NCBI GenBank assembly: GCA_964416345.1
Contig: CAYQDX010000001.1
Coordinates: 29,033-44,263, forward strand
Length of the DNA: 15,231 nucleotides
Direction of reading: 5' to 3'
From: an uncultured Ectothiorhodospiraceae bacterium
GTDB taxonomy: Bacteria > Pseudomonadota > Gammaproteobacteria > CAYQDX01
The notes under the pieces were generated by a model. The model had not been told where the DNA came from and made no database searches. It saw nothing but the letters and a program-made list of their open reading frames with translations. This document shows positions 48 through 10,679 of this stretch, piece by piece. A program made the position numbers and the translations under genes. The stretch's first letter is position 1, and every line of letters starts with the position of its first letter.

Positions 48-764
48 ATGATCGAGATCGTCCGTCAGCCGGGAATGGGTCAGCCTGCCGGCGTCTGGGC
101 CGCCGAGCCGGCGTTTTGGATGGATACGCGGCGCGGCCTGGTGCTGCCGGAGTGGGGCAGGACGCCCGTCGTGGCCGAATTCCTGGCCCATCGCGTCGCC
201 AGGTGTCCAAACGACTTGCAGGCCCATGTCCGGCGGGTGTTGTTACAGCGGCAGCTGGGGGATGCGGACGGTGTGTACGGCGCGCTGCTCGATTTGTGCA
301 TCGCGCTGCGCGGTGTCGGGCGAGAGGTTCGGGAGCGGATGCTGGGCTGTGCCGGTCCGCTGTTGTCCCCCTCGCGGCGCCAGGCGCTGGAGGCCAGACT
401 CGATGCCGGACTGGGTCCGACCGACCCCATGCCGGCTTCCCGGCATTCGGTGCTCGGTCGCGGATTGAGCGCCTCGGTCCCCGTGGTGTTGATGACCGAA
501 GGCGCACAGAAGCACGAGGCAACGGCGCTGGAGCAGGCTCGGGAGCTCATCGAATCGGGGCGCGTGGCCGAGGCTCAGGAGCTATTGGAGAGTGCCCTGG
601 TGCGCAACCCCGACGATGATGAGGTAGGGTTGGAGCTGCTCGAAGTTTACCAACACACACGGGATACCGAGTCGCTGCGCAGGATGTGCCGGCTGCTCGG
701 CAAGCTGGGCACGCCTTCGGCTCAGGCCTGGGTCGGCATGGCGGAGCTATTCGCCATCGAGTAG
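48..764 (+). CDS. Hypothetical protein with C-terminal TPR-like helical repeat. May be 5'-partial, because the reading frame stays open back to nt 3 at the window edge.
   Basis: 238-aa ORF. No stop codon lies in-frame between nt 3 and the ATG at 48, and there is no clear SD before 48. The C-terminal ~60 aa (ALEQARELIESGRVAEAQELLESALVRNPDDDEVGLELLEVYQ...) has a TPR-like / FimV-C-terminal-like helix pair pattern. It ends 44 nt before the next co-oriented gene. Confidence 0.45.
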   Translation: MIEIVRQPGMGQPAGVWAAEPAFWMDTRRGLVLPEWGRTPVVAEFLAHRVARCPNDLQAHVRRVLLQRQLGDADGVYGALLDLCIALRGVGREVRERMLGCAGPLLSPSRRQALEARLDAGLGPTDPMPASRHSVLGRGLSASVPVVLMTEGAQKHEATALEQARELIESGRVAEAQELLESALVRNPDDDEVGLELLEVYQHTRDTESLRRMCRLLGKLGTPSAQAWVGMAELFAIE

Positions 765-808
765 CACCAAGCCGCATATCTGACCCAAGACATTCCGAAG
801 GGGCCTGG

Positions 809-1990
809 ATGACGACGATGAGCAAGCCATTGAGAGTGACGGCGCTGGGCCTGGATAAGCGCTCCCGCTCAGCCCTGGAGATGATTCTGAAGGGGCCTGG
901 CAAGGGCGCCTGTGTGCTCACCGACGTGGCCGAGAGCGAGGCGGCGATAGTCGACATGGATAGACCGGAGGCGTCGATGCTATGGGAGAACTACCACCGG
1001 CACTACCCAGAGCGCCCGGGCATCGCCCTGTCGGCACAGGATTCTTGCCCCGAGGGAACGCGCCTCCAGCCCAAGCCGGTGAGCATCAACGCGCTGCTGG
1101 CCAGCCTTCGAGCGGTCGCCGAGGAGCTTGCGGGCCCGGAGGCCGCCACGGCGGAAACGGGAAAGGCTGCCGGTGCCCAGCTCGAGTCCAAGGTGGTTTC
1201 CACCAGGGGGGCGACGCAGGTCCTGGAAGATCGGGCCGTTCGCCGTTATGTGTCGGCCCTGCCCGAGTCACTGCCCGAGGACTACCGGCAGCTCTCTGAT
1301 CCCGCGTCGCGAGCCAAGCTCTTTTTCGTGCCCACGGACTACATCGGGGGCCATTTGCTGGAGGCCATCCGTGAGGCCGTAGCCAGGGGAGAGGCGCGAA
1401 TTATCCATCTGCGGGTGGGCGCGATCACCGTGGACCCGGCGGCGCATCGGACTTGGTGCGCTCTAACGGATACCCGGCTGAAGCAGGTATGCATGGTACG
1501 GGCGCACAGCGGAGACGGCGAGGCCCTGGATCTGCGGATCGAAGGACAAGCGCGCGGCGCCGCCGTCGAGGCGCCGCCAGGTGGCGGCGCGGGATTGGAC
1601 CTCGATGCGTTTGTCTGGAAGGTGGCGGTTTGGGTTTCTCGTGGCCGCGCGCCGGAGGGCACGGACCTGCAGGAGCCGGTGCTGCTGCGCCACTGGCCCA
1701 ATCTGACCCGCCTGCTGATGACCCCAAGCGTTATGCGGGTCGCCGCGATCTGGGCCAAACAGCACCGCTCGCCGGTGGAGACGGCCACCCTGCTGCGCAT
1801 CCCCTTGTCCCATGTGCTGACATTCTACGCGGCGGCGAGGGCGACCGGGTTGCTCGTGGAGGCCCGACGCCAAAAGGACGAGCTGTTCTCGCCGCCGGAC
1901 ATCGATCGACATCGCCAACGCGGTCTGCTCAGCAGGATGCTCGCCAAGATTCTTGGCGCGACACAAGGTTCAGACCAGAAGGGCACTTGA
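809..1990 (+). CDS. Hypothetical 393-aa protein. The N-terminal ~100 aa resemble a degenerate receiver (REC) fold; the rest is unrecognised.
   Basis: The listed ORF 686..1990 was trimmed to ATG 809, which is preceded by GAAGGGG (797-803) at 5-nt spacing. The N-terminus LRVTALGLDKRSRSALEMIL...AAIVDMDRPEASMLWENY...PGIALSAQ follows the REC pattern (hydrophobic strand, acidic pocket reduced to GLD, a conserved Asp in IVDMD). It is the first gene of a tight cluster with the GTPase gene 18 nt downstream. Confidence 0.6.
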   Translation: MTTMSKPLRVTALGLDKRSRSALEMILKGPGKGACVLTDVAESEAAIVDMDRPEASMLWENYHRHYPERPGIALSAQDSCPEGTRLQPKPVSINALLASLRAVAEELAGPEAATAETGKAAGAQLESKVVSTRGATQVLEDRAVRRYVSALPESLPEDYRQLSDPASRAKLFFVPTDYIGGHLLEAIREAVARGEARIIHLRVGAITVDPAAHRTWCALTDTRLKQVCMVRAHSGDGEALDLRIEGQARGAAVEAPPGGGAGLDLDAFVWKVAVWVSRGRAPEGTDLQEPVLLRHWPNLTRLLMTPSVMRVAAIWAKQHRSPVETATLLRIPLSHVLTFYAAARATGLLVEARRQKDELFSPPDIDRHRQRGLLSRMLAKILGATQGSDQKGT

Positions 1991-2008
1991 GACCAGAGGC
2001 GGGCTGCG

Positions 2009-2554
2009 GTGGAGCAACACAAGATCATATTCACGGGCCCCGTCGGGGCGGGTAAGACCACGGCCATCAATGCGATTAGCGACATCCCAACGGTGCGCAC
2101 GGACGCCACGGCCACCGACATGACGGCGGGCCGCAAGCGTGTGACTACCGTGGCCCTGGATTTTGGCGTCATGAATCTAGGACCGGACGAGCGTATTCAT
2201 CTCTACGGCACCCCAGGCCAGGAGCGCTTCGACTTCATGTGGGAGATCCTGTCTAAGGGAGCCATCGGCCTCGTGCTGTTGCTCGACAACACCCGCGCCG
2301 ATCCCTCCGCCGACCTACGCTTCTTCGTGCAGGCGTTCCGTGGGTTCATCGACCGCACGGAGCTAGCGGTGGGGGTGACCCGCATGGACCTGAGCCCCAA
2401 GCCCCGGATCGCGGACTATCACAGCGCCATCCGCGGTGTTGGACTCAAGCCGCCCGTCTTCGCGGTCGACGCCCGGGAGTCCCGGGATGTCGGGCTGCTA
2501 ATTCAGGCCCTGCTCTACAGCCTGGATCCGGGTTTGGTGGCAGCCGATGAGTGA
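2009..2554 (+). CDS. Small Ras-like GTPase (MglA / conservon CvnD-like ATP/GTP-binding protein)
   Basis: 181 aa with a GTG start. P-loop GPVGAGKTT (aa 10-18). Switch II/G3 is GTPGQERF (aa 67-74), characteristic of the CvnD/MglA-like subfamily. The G4 position reads VTRMD instead of NKxD. AGAGG lies 9 nt upstream. Its stop overlaps the start of the next gene (ATGAGTGA). Confidence 0.8.
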   Translation: MEQHKIIFTGPVGAGKTTAINAISDIPTVRTDATATDMTAGRKRVTTVALDFGVMNLGPDERIHLYGTPGQERFDFMWEILSKGAIGLVLLLDNTRADPSADLRFFVQAFRGFIDRTELAVGVTRMDLSPKPRIADYHSAIRGVGLKPPVFAVDARESRDVGLLIQALLYSLDPGLVAADE

Positions 2555-3230
2555 GCTTACTTTGGCCCCGGAGACCTATGTGGTGCCAAGTCCGGCGGGC
2601 GCGTACTACGCGGCATCCAACCGCAGCCAGGAGCCGGCCCGCGCCCTGCTGTTTAGGCTCATGAGCCTAGGGCAGACGCCGATACTCACGACGGATCTGC
2701 TGCGATCCTGGCTGGGGGACCAGCAGGTGCACACGGGGCTGGAGCTGCTGTGGCACATGCAGTCGCTGGGCTGGATTCAGGGCGCCCGGCAGGCCCGTCC
2801 GGCGCCGGCCGGGGCGCTGGACGAGATTCTTCTGGGGATGCTGGCCGAGCTCTCCAGCGAGAAGAAGGCGCTGCTGGCCGACGACAGCGGCTTCTACGTC
2901 GCCAACTACGGTTATACCCACGAGGCCGCCGAGGAGCTTTCGGCCCTGAGCGGGCGCCTGGCGTCACTCTACGAGCGTCATCGCGGCCTGCTCTACAACA
3001 ATCTGGGAATTCCCTCGGCGGCCTGGGCCGTGGTCGACGCCGCCGGCAACAGCACGATCGGCTTCTGGCCACTGTACATCGGCGTCGAGCGCTTCGTTCT
3101 GGCCATCAGCGGCATGCCGCAGCTCAGTCAGCCGGCCTTCGTCGACCTGGTCTGGGCGCTGGCGCGCCGCTACGCAGATGTGCCGGAGGTCGCTCCCGAC
3201 GCAACCGTCGTGCCCGTGCACGGTACCTGA
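2547..3230 (+). CDS. Hypothetical 227-aa protein, translationally coupled to the GTPase gene
   Basis: The ATG at 2547 overlaps the GTPase stop by 8 nt. GC3-rich codon usage is consistent with the neighbouring genes. No family recognised from the sequence alone. It sits between the GTPase and Roadblock genes, which is the position taken by the DUF742-type CvnC partner in the actinobacterial gene order cvnA-cvnB(roadblock)-cvnC-cvnD(GTPase). This arrangement is hypothetical-REC-like, GTPase, unknown, roadblock, so the order differs. Confidence 0.6.
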   Translation: MSELTLAPETYVVPSPAGAYYAASNRSQEPARALLFRLMSLGQTPILTTDLLRSWLGDQQVHTGLELLWHMQSLGWIQGARQARPAPAGALDEILLGMLAELSSEKKALLADDSGFYVANYGYTHEAAEELSALSGRLASLYERHRGLLYNNLGIPSAAWAVVDAAGNSTIGFWPLYIGVERFVLAISGMPQLSQPAFVDLVWALARRYADVPEVAPDATVVPVHGT

Positions 3231-3306
3231 GCAGGAATACATTTGCCCGCGTGGCGCCGGTGCACCACGCATTAGACCCACAGACTGGGAATAGGAGAGC
3301 CTACTC

Positions 3307-3669
3307 ATGCGCGAAGACATGCTCACCTCCATACTGAATGATCTCAAGGGCACATCTGCGGATATCGAAGCCTCGGCGGTGATCTCCACCGATGGACTCA
3401 TCATGGCGGCCCAGCTTCCGCAAGGCATCGACGGCGACCGGGTGGGCGCCATGGCCGCCGCCATGCTGTCGCTGGGTGATCGCACCGCCCAGGAGCTCAG
3501 CCGCGGACTGCTGGAGCAGGTCCTGATAAGAGGCAACAAGGGCTACGTGCTCATGACTCATGCCGGGCCCGATGCGGTGCTCTCGGTGCTTGCCTCCTCC
3601 AATGCCAAGCTGGGCCTCATCTTCTTGGATGTTGCGCGGGCCGCGGAATCCATCGCCAAGCTGGTTTAG
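3307..3669 (+). CDS. Roadblock/LC7 domain protein (MglB / CvnB-like)
   Basis: 120 aa. SAVISTDGLIMAAQLP...DRVGAMAAAMLSLGDRTAQELSRGLLEQVLIRGNKGYVLMTHAGPDAVLSVLASSNAKLGLIFLDV is the typical Roadblock/LC7 alpha-beta pattern. A strong RBS AGGAGAG sits 7 nt upstream. Confidence 0.8.
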   Translation: MREDMLTSILNDLKGTSADIEASAVISTDGLIMAAQLPQGIDGDRVGAMAAAMLSLGDRTAQELSRGLLEQVLIRGNKGYVLMTHAGPDAVLSVLASSNAKLGLIFLDVARAAESIAKLV

Positions 3670-3696
3670 CGCGGCAAGTAGAACGGAGACCAAATT

Positions 3697-4056
3697 ATGG
3701 CCAACAAAGCGTTCTTTCTGCTGCGCATGAACGATCACGTCCAGTACCTGCACAAGATCCAGGCGACGCTGGAAGGTAGGGGCGACTTTCAGGGCACGGA
3801 CTGGCACGAGTGCAAGCTGGGCAAGTGGCTCTACGGCGAAGGTGTCGCCGAGGCGGAGGCAGCCGGCCCCGAGGTCAAGGCTCTATTCGACAGCCTGTTT
3901 GAGCCCCACGAGGCCTTCCACAAGGCCAGCCACAGCGCCTTGGGCAAGCAACAGGACGGCGACGAGCAGGGCTCACGGGAGGCCGTGACCGAGATGTACC
4001 GGCTGTCGAACACCCTGGTCGAGATGCTGCTGTCCTTGGATCAGAAAAGCAACTAG
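3697..4056 (+). CDS. Stand-alone CZB (chemoreceptor zinc-binding) domain protein
   Basis: Matches the published CZB motif exactly: H-x2-Y (HVQY), then 21 residues, then C-x-L-G-x-W (CKLGKW), then 26 residues, then H-x3-H (HEAFH). The RBS GGAGA precedes the ATG. It starts 27 nt after the roadblock gene, so it is probably co-transcribed. Confidence 0.8.
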   Translation: MANKAFFLLRMNDHVQYLHKIQATLEGRGDFQGTDWHECKLGKWLYGEGVAEAEAAGPEVKALFDSLFEPHEAFHKASHSALGKQQDGDEQGSREAVTEMYRLSNTLVEMLLSLDQKSN

Positions 4057-4361
4057 CGCGCTGGCCTCGGCGGGCCGGCATGATGCAGACCCGCTGAGAC
4101 ATTGCGGACTCGTCCTCTTGATCCACGGCGCACCCCGGCCGGTGCGCTGTGCCTCCTCCTATCGCTTGCGTCGACTCGCCGACTGGGACTTGACTTCCTG
4201 GGGGGCTGGCCCGGCATCATTTGGCCTCGGCGCGGCCCGGGTCAGGGTGCAGCGATCAACGCCTAGACTTGGACGAGGAGGCCGTGGTCCATGGAGACCG
4301 GCGAGGCTCAACGAGACCGTGAGATCGGCGACTGCCCGCCCAGGGGTATGCGGCCGGGCGC

Positions 4362-6258: not shown

Positions 6259-6807
6259 CTAGGCGGCGGCGCCGGTGGTGTGCTGCTTGACCACCAGCTT
6301 GCCCTCCTGGAACTGCTGGGCGAAATAATCCTTCACGGCTTCCGGGTCGAAGTTGAGGAAGGTGCCGCCGGATTCGAAGTGCTGGATAAACACCTTGCCC
6401 AGCGCATAAGTGGCGGCGCCGGAGAGGCTGGGCATGGTGAGGGCGCCCAGGATCGGTCCGGCAATCGGGATGACGCGCAGGGCACTGTAGACCGGCCGTG
6501 CCACGGCCGCCGGTGCTGCACCCGCCAACAGCGGCGCGATGATGTTCTTCACCATATCGTGCGAGTACGGGATTTCGTATAGCTTGCTCAGCCGGTACAA
6601 CAGGTTGAGCTGAATGCCGGTGTTGCCCACGAAATCCAGCAGGGGCAGCGGAAGGACGCCCACGCCCACCGATGCGAGCACGTGCTTCAGAACTAGGGAA
6701 TTGGCTTGCTGGGCCTTGCCGGTGCTGACCGGGAGCTGAGCCTCTGCTGCCGCGTCCGTCTGCGGCTGGGTCGCGCCCTGGTCCGATGCGGTTGATTTTT
6801 CTGTCAT
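6259..6807 (-). CDS. DUF697-like (YcjF-type) domain protein
   Basis: 182 aa. The core GVLPLPLLDFVGNTGIQLNLLYRLSKLYEIPYS...PILGALTMPSLSGAATYALGKVFIQHFESGG follows the DUF697 consensus as I recall it (..PiPlaD......iq..m...ia..YG.......LGk....yF). The N-terminus is low-complexity and Ala/Gln-rich. The family assignment is from memory and should be confirmed by an HMM search. Confidence 0.6.
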   Translation of the reverse strand: MTEKSTASDQGATQPQTDAAAEAQLPVSTGKAQQANSLVLKHVLASVGVGVLPLPLLDFVGNTGIQLNLLYRLSKLYEIPYSHDMVKNIIAPLLAGAAPAAVARPVYSALRVIPIAGPILGALTMPSLSGAATYALGKVFIQHFESGGTFLNFDPEAVKDYFAQQFQEGKLVVKQHTTGAAA

Positions 6808-7087
6808 TGGCTGGCCTCGTTGGGGTGGTTACTACAGAGGCCGGTGAACCGCCGAGCTCATCGACCATCCGGGCTGTGAGCCTTATCACACGAGTCCTAA
6901 GGTTCTCAAAGCGGTGCGGCCGTGTCAATATAGCCCCGCGCCGTACGGCGCCATGCCCAGGGGGATTGGCCGGGGCGGGCGCCATGTCCCGGCGCGACCC
7001 TCAACGCTCGTGCCGGAGTGTGGCCGTGCCGGGACCGCCACGAGTCGGTGGCGAGGGGGGGGCTGCAGGCACAGGAGCTCCAAGCTG

Positions 7088-7390
7088 ATGACCACGATCG
7101 ACGTTTTTCCGGGCCAGGGCTCTGAGAAGAAGGGCATGGGGGCCGAGCTCGAAGCATTTCTGGCCGGCGTCGACTTTGCGCCCTTGCAGATTCCGGTTGT
7201 CTCGAATGTCCATGCCAGGCCCAACGCGCCGGGCGAGATCTGCCAGAATCTCGCCAGCCAGATGACCCACCCCTTGCGCGGGACCGAGAGCACCCAGTAC
7301 CTGCTGCGCCAGCCCGATCCGCAGATCGAGGAGGTCGGTCCCGGGACGGTGGGCGCGGGCCTCATTCCACAGATCAAGGCAGCCGCTTGA
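7088..7390 (+). CDS. Truncated FabD-like acyltransferase remnant. It keeps the N-terminal GQGS oxyanion region and the C-terminal helix, but lacks the GHSxGE nucleophile and the catalytic His.
   Basis: The 100-aa ORF starts at ATG 7088, with AGGAG 10 nt upstream. MTTIDVFPGQGSEKKGMGAELEAF aligns to the FabD N-terminus (FAFVFPGQGSQTVGM...). PLQIPVVSNVHARP...HPLRGTESTQYLLRQ...EEVGPGTVGAGLIPQI aligns to the FabD C-terminus (PTVPVVNNVDV...NPVQWTKSVEYM...YEVGPGKVLTGLTKRI). The ~200-aa catalytic middle is absent, and the deletion is in-frame. Confidence 0.5.
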   Translation: MTTIDVFPGQGSEKKGMGAELEAFLAGVDFAPLQIPVVSNVHARPNAPGEICQNLASQMTHPLRGTESTQYLLRQPDPQIEEVGPGTVGAGLIPQIKAAA

Positions 7391-8172
7391 GCTCATGCTC
7401 CGGCGCGGCCGGTGCCATGGCAGGCGCCCATGAGGCGGCGGGACCGGCCCTGCCGCTGCTGCTGGAGACGCGCGATGGTCCGCTGCGGGCCGCCTTTGCG
7501 CAGGTGGGTGCCGGCGAATATGCAGCCGTGGAGCACTCGCGCCGGATCTGGCTGCACCCGACGGAGCTGCGCTACTTGGACACGCTGAGCGCGGAGCGCC
7601 GCCGGCGCAGTTATCTGCTGGGTCGCTGCGCCGCCAAGCGCGCTCTGTGCTGTCTGCTGCCCCAGGCGCCCGCAGCGCAGCTAGAGGTCGCAAACGGGGT
7701 CTTCGGCCAGCCGGTGCTGCGCTATGCGACCTCAGAGCCCGTGGATCTCAGCATCAGCCATACGAATCAGCTGGGCTGCGCGCTGGCATTTCCCGCCCTG
7801 CATCCCATGGGGCTGGACGTGGAGCAGGTGAGCGTCGAGCGGGCGCACGTCATGCAGAGCCAGATGGTGGCGGAAGAGCTAGCCGCCGCAGAAGCGGCGG
7901 TGGGCTCGGCGCCGGCGGCGTGTGCCCTGCTGTGGACCGCCAAGGAGGCCCTGTCCAAGGCGCTGCGCTGCGGCATGACCTGTCCCTTCGAGCTGATGGC
8001 CGTGGCCGGCATCGAGGGTGAGCCCCCCGCGCTGGGGGGACGTTTCCGCAATTTCGGCCAGTACCAATTCCAAACCTGGATTGGCGCCGGGACGGTGCTC
8101 AGCCTGGTGCTGCCCCGCAGCAGCCGGCTGTTGACGGACCTGAGCTCTGCGGCGGCCGGGATGCCGGCGTGA
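7387..8172 (+). CDS. 4'-phosphopantetheinyl transferase (Sfp/EntD-type PPTase)
   Basis: PPTase motifs are present: LGRCAAKRAL (like motif P1/P2 L-GR-AAKEA), SISHT, GLDVEQV (G-x-D-x-E) and WTAKEALSKAL (W-x-x-KEA-x-K). The listed start is TTG 7387, overlapping the upstream stop. The first in-frame ATG is at 7417, so the exact start is uncertain. Confidence 0.8.
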   Translation: MSSCSGAAGAMAGAHEAAGPALPLLLETRDGPLRAAFAQVGAGEYAAVEHSRRIWLHPTELRYLDTLSAERRRRSYLLGRCAAKRALCCLLPQAPAAQLEVANGVFGQPVLRYATSEPVDLSISHTNQLGCALAFPALHPMGLDVEQVSVERAHVMQSQMVAEELAAAEAAVGSAPAACALLWTAKEALSKALRCGMTCPFELMAVAGIEGEPPALGGRFRNFGQYQFQTWIGAGTVLSLVLPRSSRLLTDLSSAAAGMPA

Positions 8173-9155
8173 GTCCTGTCATTTGGATGTGCTCCGGTCA
8201 GGGCTCCCAGTATTACCACATGGGCAAGGACCTCTACGACGCCGAGCCCGTCTTTCGCGGCACCATGGATTCCTGCAGCGAGATCCTGCGACCCATGATC
8301 GGCTTGTCGCTGAGCGAGCTGCTGTACAGGCCCCGTGCCGATCGCTTCGCGGCCTTCGACCGGACCCTCTACAGCGGACCCGCCATCTGCTGCCTGCAGT
8401 ATGCCGTGGCCCAGCTGCTGCGCGCCCGCGGCTGCGCACCCGACGCGGTGCTGGGCTACAGCATTGGGGAGGTATCCGCCGCAGTCATCGCCGGCGGGCT
8501 GACACTTGCAGACGGGTTGGAGGCAGCTGTGCGGCTTGCCGAGCTGTTGGAAGCGCGGATCCCGGAGGGCGGCATGCTGGCCGTGCTGGCCAGGCCGGAG
8601 ATCCTACGGGCACGGCCGGATGTGTTTGCCGGCACCTGGGTCTCCGCCTGGAACTTCCCCGCCCATTTCGTCCTGAGCGGCACAGGCCACGCCATCGCCC
8701 GGGTAGAGCAAGGCCTTGCGGTCCACCAAATCGGCTGCCAGCGCCTGCCGGTGCGCTTCGCCTTTCATTCGCCCCTGATCGAGCCCATAGGCGAGGCGCT
8801 GATGGCGCATCTGGCACGGCTCGATTACCGGCAGCCGCGCATGGCGCTGATCTCGGCGACGCTGGGCGGTGACAGGCTGGAGCCGTCACCGGAGATCCTG
8901 TGGGGTGTGCTGCGCCAGCCGGTGGACTTCGCGCGCACCGTGCAAGTCATCGAAGGCTGGGGGCCCCACACTTATGTGGATCTGGGGCCGTCTGGCACGC
9001 TGGCGACGTTCGTGAAGTACAACCTGTCCGCGAGCTCCGAATCTAGGGTAGCGTCCACCGTCACGCCCTTCGGTCGGGCCGTGCAGAACATGGAGGGCGA
9101 TCTGCTGCGACCGGTGCGACGGCAAGCCGCGGACCCCGGTAGGTCGTCACCCTAG
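8169..9155 (+). CDS. Acyltransferase of the malonyl-CoA:ACP transacylase (FabD/PKS-AT) fold, with GYSIGE at the nucleophile elbow
   Basis: 328 aa. The GTG start at 8169 overlaps the PPTase stop (GTGA). SGQGSQYYHMG matches the oxyanion region. LGYSIGEVSAAVIAGG matches GHSLGEYSAL of FabD, with Tyr in place of His. The Arg in LLEARIPEGG, and AFHSPL carrying the catalytic His, are both present. Confidence 0.8.
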   Translation: MSPVIWMCSGQGSQYYHMGKDLYDAEPVFRGTMDSCSEILRPMIGLSLSELLYRPRADRFAAFDRTLYSGPAICCLQYAVAQLLRARGCAPDAVLGYSIGEVSAAVIAGGLTLADGLEAAVRLAELLEARIPEGGMLAVLARPEILRARPDVFAGTWVSAWNFPAHFVLSGTGHAIARVEQGLAVHQIGCQRLPVRFAFHSPLIEPIGEALMAHLARLDYRQPRMALISATLGGDRLEPSPEILWGVLRQPVDFARTVQVIEGWGPHTYVDLGPSGTLATFVKYNLSASSESRVASTVTPFGRAVQNMEGDLLRPVRRQAADPGRSSP

Positions 9156-9320
9156 CGGCTCTTTGGCGCCGTCTCCGGGACCGCCATGCACCCGGAGCTC
9201 GCACCGATGTGGGATGGGCATGCTCGACGGGACAAGCGCTTGCATGTGGGGTGGCGAATACCGAAGATCGGGCGGCCGGCATGCGGCAGCCACGGTGGTC
9301 AGGGTGATCTTGTGAGCCGA

Positions 9321-10679
9321 ATGAGCAGATTCCTGGTACGCTTCTACCCGTCGCTCGTTGCCGTGGTGCTGGGCGCGGTGACTCTGGGGCTGCTCATGGT
9401 GCCGGGTGAGGTAGGACCCGAGATTCACGGCGTCCGCGGCTGGCTCTCGGTCTACGCGGCGCATATCACCGTGGTGCTGTTGGTGGCCGCCCTGATTTGG
9501 GCCAATGCGGCGCGCGAGCGACTGGCGGCCGTCAGCGACCGAGGGCGCCGCTGGGTGCGCCGTCAGATCATCCCACTGGCGGTCGTTGGGCTGCTCTTCG
9601 TCTGGCTGTTCATCTACCTCATCCCCAACATCTTCATCTTCGTCAAGCCCGGCGAGGGCGGGGTCCTGTGGCACCGCTTCGGCAACGGCACGGTCACAGA
9701 CAGGTCCTACGGCGAAGGCACACACATCATCCTGCCGTGGGACCTGATGTACATATACAATGTCAGGCTGCAGAATCGGACCCAAGTATTCGAAGTGCTG
9801 TCCAAGGACGGCCTGCTCTACCACGTGGCCCTCACCATCCGCTTCAGGCTGATCCTCGAGGATCTGGGTCTGCTGCATCAGCACGTGGGACCGGACTACG
9901 TCAACACGCTCATCTTTCCCGAGCTCGGCTCCCATGCCCGGGCGCTGATGGCTCAATACCGCGCAGATGAGGTCTACACGACCCGGCGTCTGGAAATCGA
10001 GAACGAGATTCTCGCCCGGCTGCGCCGGGAGATGGTGGTGGGCTACATCCCGGAGGTCAAGCGGGAGAGCTACCTGCATGTCGAGAATGTACTGGTTCGC
10101 CAGATCATCCTGCCGAAGAAGGTGGCAGACGCCATCGAGAACAAGCTGGCTCAGGAGCAAATGATGCTGGAGTACGACTTCCGTCTCGGCAAGGAAATGA
10201 AAGAGGCCGAGCGCAAGCGCATCGAAGCTTACGGTATCCGCGACTTCCAGTCCATTGTGCGGCAGGGCATCTCGGAGCAGCTGCTCAAGTGGAAGGGCAT
10301 CAACGCCACCCTGGAGCTGGCCAGGTCGAACAACAGCAAGATCGTGGTCATCGGTGCGGGCAAGGAAGGGATGCCGCTTATCCTCGGCGGCTTCGACAGC
10401 TCAGCGTCCGCAGCGAGATCAACGCCGGCGAATCCGCAAGGGAGTGTCGGCTCGTCCGAGGACGGTCAATCCACCGAGTCCCAGGGACTGGACTGGCTAC
10501 AACCAGAAGCCTCGGAGACCGGCCTCAGCGCGGCACCGGATGGCAGCCGCGCCGAGCCTGCCTTGCCGGCGATGGACTACAAGCCGGCGCCATCCGCGGT
10601 CGCGCCGGCGGGGCGTGCCCCTGACGGCAACACCGCCGGCGGGCGTGCGGCCCCGGTGACACAGCCTCCCATGCCCTGA
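9321..10679 (+). CDS. SPFH/Band-7 (prohibitin/HflC-like) domain membrane protein with a long low-complexity C-terminal tail
   Basis: The listed ORF 9186..10679 was trimmed to ATG 9321; an alternative GTG at 9312 lies 4 nt after AGGGTGA. There are three hydrophobic segments before VKPGEGGVLWHRFGNGT...THIILPWDLMYIYNVRLQNRTQVFEVLSKDGL...VALTIRFRL, which is the SPFH core pattern. A coiled-coil-like segment follows. The last ~110 aa are rich in Pro/Ala/Ser/Gly. Confidence 0.75.
   Translation: MSRFLVRFYPSLVAVVLGAVTLGLLMVPGEVGPEIHGVRGWLSVYAAHITVVLLVAALIWANAARERLAAVSDRGRRWVRRQIIPLAVVGLLFVWLFIYLIPNIFIFVKPGEGGVLWHRFGNGTVTDRSYGEGTHIILPWDLMYIYNVRLQNRTQVFEVLSKDGLLYHVALTIRFRLILEDLGLLHQHVGPDYVNTLIFPELGSHARALMAQYRADEVYTTRRLEIENEILARLRREMVVGYIPEVKRESYLHVENVLVRQIILPKKVADAIENKLAQEQMMLEYDFRLGKEMKEAERKRIEAYGIRDFQSIVRQGISEQLLKWKGINATLELARSNNSKIVVIGAGKEGMPLILGGFDSSASAARSTPANPQGSVGSSEDGQSTESQGLDWLQPEASETGLSAAPDGSRAEPALPAMDYKPAPSAVAPAGRAPDGNTAGGRAAPVTQPPMP

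Follow-up and report, generated by a model that had tools for sequence, protein, structure and literature searches.

An acyltransferase-like reading frame in the window

This study concerns a short open reading frame (ORF) in a 15,231-nucleotide stretch of contig CAYQDX010000001.1 from an uncultured Ectothiorhodospiraceae bacterium, and that whole stretch is referred to here as the window. The ORF, called the stub below, lies on the forward strand at positions 7088..7390, consists of 100 codons followed by TGA, and is listed by automated annotation as a 100-aa hypothetical protein. Its 100-residue translation runs from MTTIDVFPGQGSEKKGMGAEL directly into EAFLAGVDFAPLQIPVVSNV...EEVGPGTVGAGLIPQIKAAA. 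Homology, together with a ratio of non-synonymous to synonymous substitution rates (dN/dS) of 0.82 against the sister locus L004, marks it as a relic of a PksC-type trans-acting malonyl-CoA:acyl carrier protein (ACP) acyltransferase (AT), whose full-length form is called AT1 here. Stub residues 1-21 (7088..7150, forward strand) comprise strand 1 and the FPGQGS..GMG oxyanion loop and are equivalent to AT1 residues 1-21; residues 22-100 (7151..7387, forward strand) are equivalent to residues 205-283 of AT1 at the related locus L011, with 56% identity. A Shine-Dalgarno-like AGGAG (7073..7077, forward strand) can be read from the sequence 10 nt before the ATG. It is a plausible ribosome-binding site, as a first-pass annotation made from the letters of the window alone had proposed, and it is intact in L004.

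When the stub was compared with the sequences in the PDB using phmmer, the top match was PksC (5dz6, E 2.7e-18), with PksE, DisD and many FabDs next. The alignment to PksC falls into two collinear pieces, in which stub residues 6-21 match PksC residues 5-20 and stub residues 19-98 match residues 202-281. This bears out the first-pass annotation, which had described the ORF as an AT N-terminus fused directly to a C-terminus with the catalytic core missing. Stub residues 19-96 also aligned with residues 210-288 of Escherichia coli FabD (1mla, E 7e-9), and the NCBIfam fabD model TIGR00128 matched in two stretches with an E value of 4e-18 and 65.9 bits, below its cut-off of 260.9. The C-terminal homology is visible only with this model and with phmmer against the PDB. 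Pfam Acyl_transf_1 (PF00698) aligned with residues 6-21 only (E 0.046; 13.6 bits against a threshold of 32.7 bits), and no Pfam family matched the stub at the default threshold. The earlier worry that the alignment to the FabD termini might fail under a proper profile search thus holds for Pfam alone. Altogether these matches indicate that the stub descends from the PksC/DisD/FabD acyltransferase family.

The segment lost corresponds to L011 AT1 residues 22-204, which is 183 aa or 549 nt and somewhat less than the roughly 200 aa estimated at first. In the alignment with L008, L011 and P0123 the GHSxGE nucleophile elbow with the catalytic Ser lies within this segment, as do both the malonyl-binding Arg and the xFHS catalytic His, and the stub picks up again past the FHSRYM...F region, at the position that corresponds to L011 residue 205. 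Likewise, FabD residues Ser92, Arg117 and His201 fall in the alignment gap along with the entire small subdomain, and the stub has no small ferredoxin-like subdomain. Since residues 22-204 are gone together with the Ser, Arg and His, acyltransferase activity is ruled out, and the score below the curated cut-off points the same way. The motifs that the first-pass annotation listed as retained are present only in part. The FPGQGS..GMG segment is there, with the GQGSQ oxyanion loop kept in the window copy as FPGQGSE (it has degenerated to FSGAGSH in the sister lineage represented by the protein P0002). However, the W of the W-x-x-S motif is missing from the window copy, which reads PLRGTES with G65, whereas P0002 retains the W.

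The stub and its identical junction were found in three lineages and at least seven independent assemblies from different samples. These include SRR9023183, SRR9710701, JGI 3300031256, SRR21285598, SRR21285591 (3' end only) and an NCBI record, and a more distant stub lineage is present in SRR22807980 and SRR22808046. Among 5.8 billion proteins, a word-indexed search recovered P0002 (81% identical, 100 aa) and otherwise nothing but the stub, and a cluster look-up added P0272, which differs from the stub by two residues; the junction is common to P0001, P0272 and P0002 only. When 1.84 billion representatives were searched exhaustively with HMMER, no further protein fell into the 50% cluster of the stub, the next match being a full-length 293-aa AT (54% identity, in two stretches), followed by many fusions of an AT with an enoyl reductase (ER). 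These searches detect only in-frame deletions of an AT. Retrieval through the adjacent phosphopantetheinyl transferase gene, which is independent of the stub being called as a protein, led to the same three lineages only. The first-pass annotation had asked whether similar short AT-like proteins are conserved beside such genes elsewhere, and these three lineages with the same junction are all that was found. When metagenome contigs were scanned with the stub alignment, the only match was L016, an unrelated partial AT located where a contig ends. A scan of genome contigs with the phosphopantetheinyl transferase gave no match, and a scan with an alignment of the acyl hydrolase encoded further downstream gave 80 loci (Thiomargarita, Vicinamibacterales, Bacillus, Paenibacillus, cyanobacteria and others). 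All 80 had at most 46% identity, which indicates that close relatives are absent among GTDB representatives.

As these 15 kb of GC-rich DNA hold 98 ORFs of 60 aa or more and the product falls below the Pfam threshold, it could be argued that the stub is a chance ORF resembling FabD motifs or the product of mis-assembly. This explanation is refuted by E values of about 1e-18 against both PksC and the fabD model, in two collinear segments, and by the conserved synteny with full-length AT1 genes described below. Because the same junction recurs in the independent assemblies, among them those of a lineage 4% divergent, the stub is not an assembly artefact.

Full-length acyltransferases at the same position in relatives

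The stub is followed on the forward strand by an intact and constrained gene for an Sfp-type 4'-phosphopantetheinyl transferase (PPTase; PF01648, 251 aa, 7417..8172, with an alternative TTG start at 7387) and then by an intact AT-like gene of 322 aa (8187..9155, forward strand). The best structural relative of the latter was by far PksD (8avz, E 1.2e-60), the proofreading acyl hydrolase of the bacillaene trans-AT polyketide synthase (PKS). In the paper on the PksD structure, PksC is the AT and PksD the acyl hydrolase (AH), and the hallmarks given for an AH are that the Ser is preceded by a residue other than His and that the protein is extended at its C-terminus (PMC11775670). The window gene is assigned as a PksD-type AH ('AT2') because it matches 8avz, reads GYSIGE in place of GHSxGE and carries a C-terminal extension. 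An origin of the stub as a remnant of this downstream gene was rejected, in agreement with the first-pass annotation, as the two show no significant similarity and belong to the PksC-type and PksD-type subfamilies, respectively.

Loci in relatives were found by way of contigs that encode homologues of the PPTase. In L011, L012 and L013, where the PPTase is 52% identical to that of the window, the order is DUF697 (reverse strand), an AT of 283-286 aa, PPTase, an AT-like protein of 325 aa, ER and ACP. L008 has a megasynthase, an AT of 285 aa, PPTase, an AT-like protein of 326 aa, ER, ACP, ketosynthase (KS), HMG-CoA synthase (HMGS), two enoyl-CoA hydratases (ECH) and Band_7. The order of L008 is repeated in L014 and L015, except that DUF697 stands at the end (the L014 AT has 286 aa), and in L006 the AT lies divergently upstream of the PPTase. 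In the window the divergent neighbour of the stub is likewise a DUF697 gene (6259..6807, reverse strand), which is 59% identical to the L011 DUF697 beside a full-length AT1. When the window was compared with L011 across this block, identity was 59% for DUF697, 56% for the C-terminal part of the stub, 52% for the PPTase and 55% for the AH. These similar values indicate that before its deletion AT1 was as conserved as its neighbours.

Full-length homologues at this locus are what the first-pass annotation had named as a sign of a recent, strain-specific deletion or pseudogene, and ATs of 283-286 aa do occupy the slot in relatives with the same gene order. The word strain-specific is too narrow, because the deletion is common to lineages about 4% apart in DNA. 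The stub had also been called a decaying paralogue. It is decaying, with substitutions at a neutral rate and invariant residues lost in each lineage (see below), but it is no paralogue, since the gene in question is the cluster's own PksC-type AT.

From these comparisons the ancestral layout would have been DUF697 (reverse strand), then AT1, PPTase, PksD-like AH, trans-ER, ACP, KS, HMG-CoA synthase, ECH and ECH, with Band_7 further along. Judged by domain order and supported by the PksC and PksD matches, the order in the relatives appears to be that of bacillaene pksC-pksD-pksE-acpK-pksF-G-H-I with an inserted PPTase. When all L008 and L006 cluster proteins were searched against the window with tblastn, the only matches were AT1 residues 1-20 and 204-279, the PPTase, the AH and Band_7, and no relics of ER, ACP, KS, HMGS, ECH or megasynthase were detected in the window. 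The Band_7 match is an SPFH/Band_7 gene (9207..10679, forward strand) that is 40% identical to the Band_7 gene closing the intact L008 cluster. Between the AH and this gene lies a spacer (9156..9206, no strand assigned) at the place where relatives carry ER-ACP-KS-HMGS-ECH-ECH, and the comparison suggests that it is the site of a second, larger deletion. The window therefore has the appearance of a collapsed trans-AT PKS accessory operon shaped by two deletions, one inside AT1 and a probable one between the end of the AH at 9155 and the SPFH gene at about 9207.

The junction of the first deletion lies between 7150 and 7151, plus or minus one codon, and inside A19-E22. Microhomology in the form of TTCGA-like sequence stands at the two break points in relatives, but a simple repeat-mediated deletion would leave one codon more at the junction than is observed. 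The reconstructed ancestral stub is near-pristine, which implies that AT1 was probably deleted not long before the known stub lineages split.

The homology, the deletion inside AT1, the intact orthologues in relatives and the neutral substitution pattern (see below) are seen directly, and we infer from them the following course of events. A single 549-nt deletion took AT1 codons 22-204, the nucleophile elbow and the small subdomain included, along with the malonyl-binding Arg and the catalytic His, while the start codon and the ribosome-binding site were kept and the frame, with a chance of one in three, was kept as well. Substitutions have since accumulated in the stub at the neutral rate, and the frame would still be open because little time has elapsed and stop codons are rare at 65% GC. 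Transcription of the stub probably continues, with the stub forming the 5' part of a transcript shared with the PPTase and the hydrolase, and it may be translated as well, the peptide presumably having no function. The second deletion would have removed everything between the hydrolase and the SPFH gene.

Substitution pattern and the open frame of the stub

Selection on the stub was assessed by comparing the window with L004, which is 95.8% identical in DNA over 4.57 kb. Divergence between the two was 3.1% in the ABC transporter gene, 2.2% in orf59, 3.6% in DUF697, 3.8% in the PPTase, 2.5% in the AH and 7.1% in the intergenic region between DUF697 and the stub, and it reached 10.6% in the stub itself. 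The dN/dS comparison proposed in the first-pass annotation was made with Nei-Gojobori estimates on the same pair. The stub has a dN of 0.109 and a dS of 0.134, which gives the ratio of 0.82, as against 0.07 for the ABC transporter, 0.11 for DUF697, 0.33 for the PPTase and 0.21 for the AH. Its divergence of 0.106 per site is about that of the neighbours' synonymous sites (dS of 0.05-0.12). The changes in the stub (23 non-synonymous and 9 synonymous) fit an omega of 1 (p 0.76), and the pooled omega of the neighbours, 0.16, is rejected for it (p 1e-5; Fisher p 7e-5), in a test that draws on one deep pair and one shallow lineage. In that shallow lineage, L097, both differences in the stub are non-synonymous.

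The 19 amino-acid differences in the stub were polarised against 29 full-length ATs, and nine were found to be derived in each lineage. Near-invariant columns were hit on both sides of the split, by V63L, W65G and L89G in the window lineage and, in that of L004, by P8S, V37A and Q10A, the last of which replaces the invariant oxyanion Gln. Columns were mapped from L011 coordinates, since mafft --addfragments misplaced the degenerate N-terminus of P0002. Four AT1s from intact clusters share 31 invariant columns in the part kept by the stub. Of these the stub lost nine after the split and only two before it, one of the latter at the junction. The corresponding losses after the split were 0 of 66 in the PPTase and 3 of 78 in the AH. 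With dN/dS close to 1 and independent losses of invariant residues in the two lineages, the stub shows evolution free of amino-acid constraint, unlike its two downstream neighbours.

With a full-length syntenic orthologue, neutral evolution and the loss of invariant residues, the stub has what is expected of a pseudogene, a broken frame excepted. It is most probably a functionless in-frame relic of the cluster's stand-alone malonyl-loading AT, the equivalent of PksC, left at the 5' end of a PPTase-AH unit that is still in use. The relic is recent and lineage-specific.

The first-pass annotation had also considered that the fused ends might be retained as a non-catalytic mini-protein that docks on the ACP, the PPTase or the AH and serves as a scaffold, regulator or decoy. 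The ORF is intact and has a good Shine-Dalgarno sequence, and two other short ATs with the N-terminal end fused to the C-terminal end, in the same range of about 100-135 aa, exist in public data. These are P0145 (135 aa) and P0169 (98 aa), and each matches in one stretch. However, their junctions differ (LFDHFPDLE joined to PFSF and ILGYSI joined to VHARPY, respectively) and their contexts are unrelated. P0169 (L098:7966-8262, NCBI GCA_040961345.1) lies within a trans-AT PKS cluster that is otherwise intact and includes an AT-ER of its own, between an ECH and a methyltransferase or megasynthase, whereas P0145 (L100:282-689) lies beside CcmH and RNA polymerase genes. On account of these junctions and contexts the two proteins and the stub are independent internal deletions and not a family, and a conserved family of AT-derived mini-proteins was rejected. 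Recurrent use of in-frame derivatives made of the two ends of an AT, in three independent cases, is less likely than the use of the stub as a leader ORF, which is discussed below. The substitution pattern also speaks against a retained mini-protein, as one lineage has lost the oxyanion Gln and the other the conserved Trp. Additionally, neither the nucleophile-elbow strand nor the large subdomain's N-terminal helices are present in the stub, and an AlphaFold2 prediction gave no compact fold (pLDDT 56.5, pTM 0.18), although this is weak evidence as a single sequence was used with no alignment. A functional mini-protein is therefore very improbable.

Several observations weigh against the stub being a mere relic. 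The reading frame is open in all three lineages, with neither a stop nor a frameshift, and a broken frame is a usual criterion for a pseudogene. The start codon and the Shine-Dalgarno sequence are intact in the three lineages as well, and there is no indel among 32-34 substitutions, whereas in the intergenic DNA next to the stub there is roughly one indel event for every 7-10 substitutions, some of them in a G8 tract. If this intergenic ratio applies, a rough estimate of the chance that the stub stayed intact is about 0.1-0.2 on the L004 branch, the only branch counted because the window copy was picked for being open. This is unremarkable but not negligible, and the record of no indels, while not significant, leaves room for weak selection on an open frame. 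Also, because full-length relatives are distant, the nearest having about 52-56% identity, the split of the window and L004 is the only point of reference for dating the deletion.

On the other side, a broken frame is not required for a relic made by an in-frame deletion, and a deletion of 549 nt has a one-in-three chance of being in frame. When 32 random substitutions were introduced with the observed transition/transversion ratio, 44% of trials remained free of stops, or 35% if the start codon also had to be kept. With this probability and the GC-rich DNA of the window (64.6% GC), an open frame is unsurprising.

The open frame could also be explained if the stub were a leader ORF whose translation is kept to support expression of the PPTase and AH, the peptide itself being useless. 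Translation could act through termination-reinitiation coupling at a TTGA overlap (7387-7390) or by shielding the transcript from Rho-dependent polarity, and selection would then keep the start, the Shine-Dalgarno sequence and the open frame but not the amino acids. That is the combination seen in the three lineages, in which the frame, ATG and AGGAG persist without indels despite substitution at the neutral rate. The PPTase and AH are under purifying selection, so their expression matters. Coupling would be ancestral, as the AT1 stop overlaps the PPTase start by 4 nt in L008 and L014 and is separated from it by 11 nt in L011. In the window, TTG 7387 overlaps the stub TGA (7388-7390), there is no obvious Shine-Dalgarno sequence before ATG 7417, and scans in and around the stub found no Rfam family and no sigma-70-like promoter or intrinsic terminator, including between the stub and the PPTase. 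However, the translational coupling described in the first-pass annotation, in which the stub stop overlaps the next start, exists for TTG 7387 only. In four assemblies the gene callers chose ATG 7417 as the PPTase start, which is 26 nt past the stub stop, and alignment to homologues favours neither start. If ascertainment is allowed for, an open frame is statistically unremarkable, with a probability of no stop of 0.44 over all 32 substitutions, and only one lineage is independent of how the window was picked. A leader ORF is therefore a possible but rather unlikely explanation. If it were true, the gene of a dead enzyme would have been turned to a new use, as an expression element for the PPTase and AH that survive.

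Known systems and surrounding genes

The closest known relatives of the stub are the trans-ATs of the PksC/BaeC/DisD type (5dz6, 6mhp, 3sbm, 5zk4), to which it is 49-56% identical over its last 79 or so residues, and which its first 20 or so residues also match. Its operon slot is comparable too, since in relatives the AT lies upstream of a PksD-like hydrolase, an ER, an AcpK-like ACP and a PksF-I-like beta-branching cassette. It differs from these ATs in lacking residues 22-204, with the GHSxGE Ser, the Arg, the xFHS His and the ferredoxin-like subdomain, and in evolving neutrally. FabD (1mla, TIGR00128) is a member of the same superfamily, but the stub is closer to PKS trans-ATs than to the FabD of fatty-acid synthesis and lacks the catalytic residues. 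The precedent behind the earlier idea of a docking piece is found in the AT-docking or KS-flanking subdomain remnants of trans-AT PKS modules, which are thought of as AT-related leftovers without AT activity (a flanking subdomain appended to KS domains is mentioned in PMC11775670). Those remnants, however, are conserved and selected parts of megasynthases, whereas the stub is a stand-alone, unconstrained ORF made of the ends of an AT catalytic domain.

As a gene relic in a biosynthetic cluster that has degraded, the stub adds one more case to a very familiar kind. It shares with such relics a full-length orthologue in the same slot of relatives, the loss of essential residues, a neutral pattern and the deletion of neighbouring pathway genes. 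It differs from ordinary pseudogenes in that its frame is open, the deletion having been a multiple of three, and on a small scale it illustrates cleanly how a gene-like ORF that evolves neutrally is left behind by an in-frame deletion. The 100-aa hypothetical protein should be annotated as an AT pseudogene, and it would be wrong to count the locus as a working trans-AT PKS element, as it has neither an AT nor a synthase and only the PPTase and the proofreading AH are constrained. No long-standing problem hinges on the status of the stub, and the consequences are mainly for annotation and genome mining. The locus does raise the question of what role a PksD-type hydrolase and an Sfp-type PPTase play after the loss of the assembly-line genes.

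The placement of an Sfp-type PPTase between a PksC-like AT and a PksD-like AH is a conserved arrangement in many metagenomic lineages (L006, L008, L011, L014), and homologues of the PPTase include those of Acidobacteria, Verrucomicrobia, Opitutus and others. In the window both the PPTase and the AH are under purifying selection despite there being no PKS genes nearby. DUF697 and SPFH/Band_7 genes recur at the edges of AT-PPTase-AH operons in distant contigs (L008:15655-16521, L011:2053-2589, L014:13620-14165), and both survive in the collapsed locus of the window. The SPFH protein of the window (9207-10679) is about 200 residues longer than its L008 counterpart, mainly through a C-terminal low-complexity tail of about 95 residues rich in Pro, Ala and Gly. 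Near the 3' end of the AH gene, a 1-nt indel (window about 9100-9155 compared with L004 about 4240-4288) results in differing C-terminal tails, which read ...RPVRRQAADPGRSSP in the window (322 aa) and ...RPERRQSPGPR in L004 (318 aa). Because the lineages differ there by an indel, the extreme tail of the AH is unconstrained.

The G8 tract is a homopolymer at 7055-7062, about 25 nt upstream of the Shine-Dalgarno sequence of the stub, in the divergent intergenic region between DUF697 and the stub. It differs between lineages, with a 2-nt insertion and substitutions in L004 and a 1-nt deletion in L097, and it looks prone to slippage in what is likely a promoter region.

The remaining genes of the window are unrelated to polyketides and encode an ABC transporter, a GTPase/Roadblock/CZB group, a peroxiredoxin, Sel1 repeats and an Fe-S/CCG protein. 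The second of these resembles a GTPase/Roadblock regulatory module, spans 686-4056 and has no relation to the stub. It contains a 434-aa ORF with no family matches (686-1990), a small MglA/Roc-like GTPase (2009-2554), a 227-aa ORF with no matches (2547-3230), an MglB-like Roadblock/LC7 protein (3307-3669) and a CZB zinc-binding domain protein (3697-4056).

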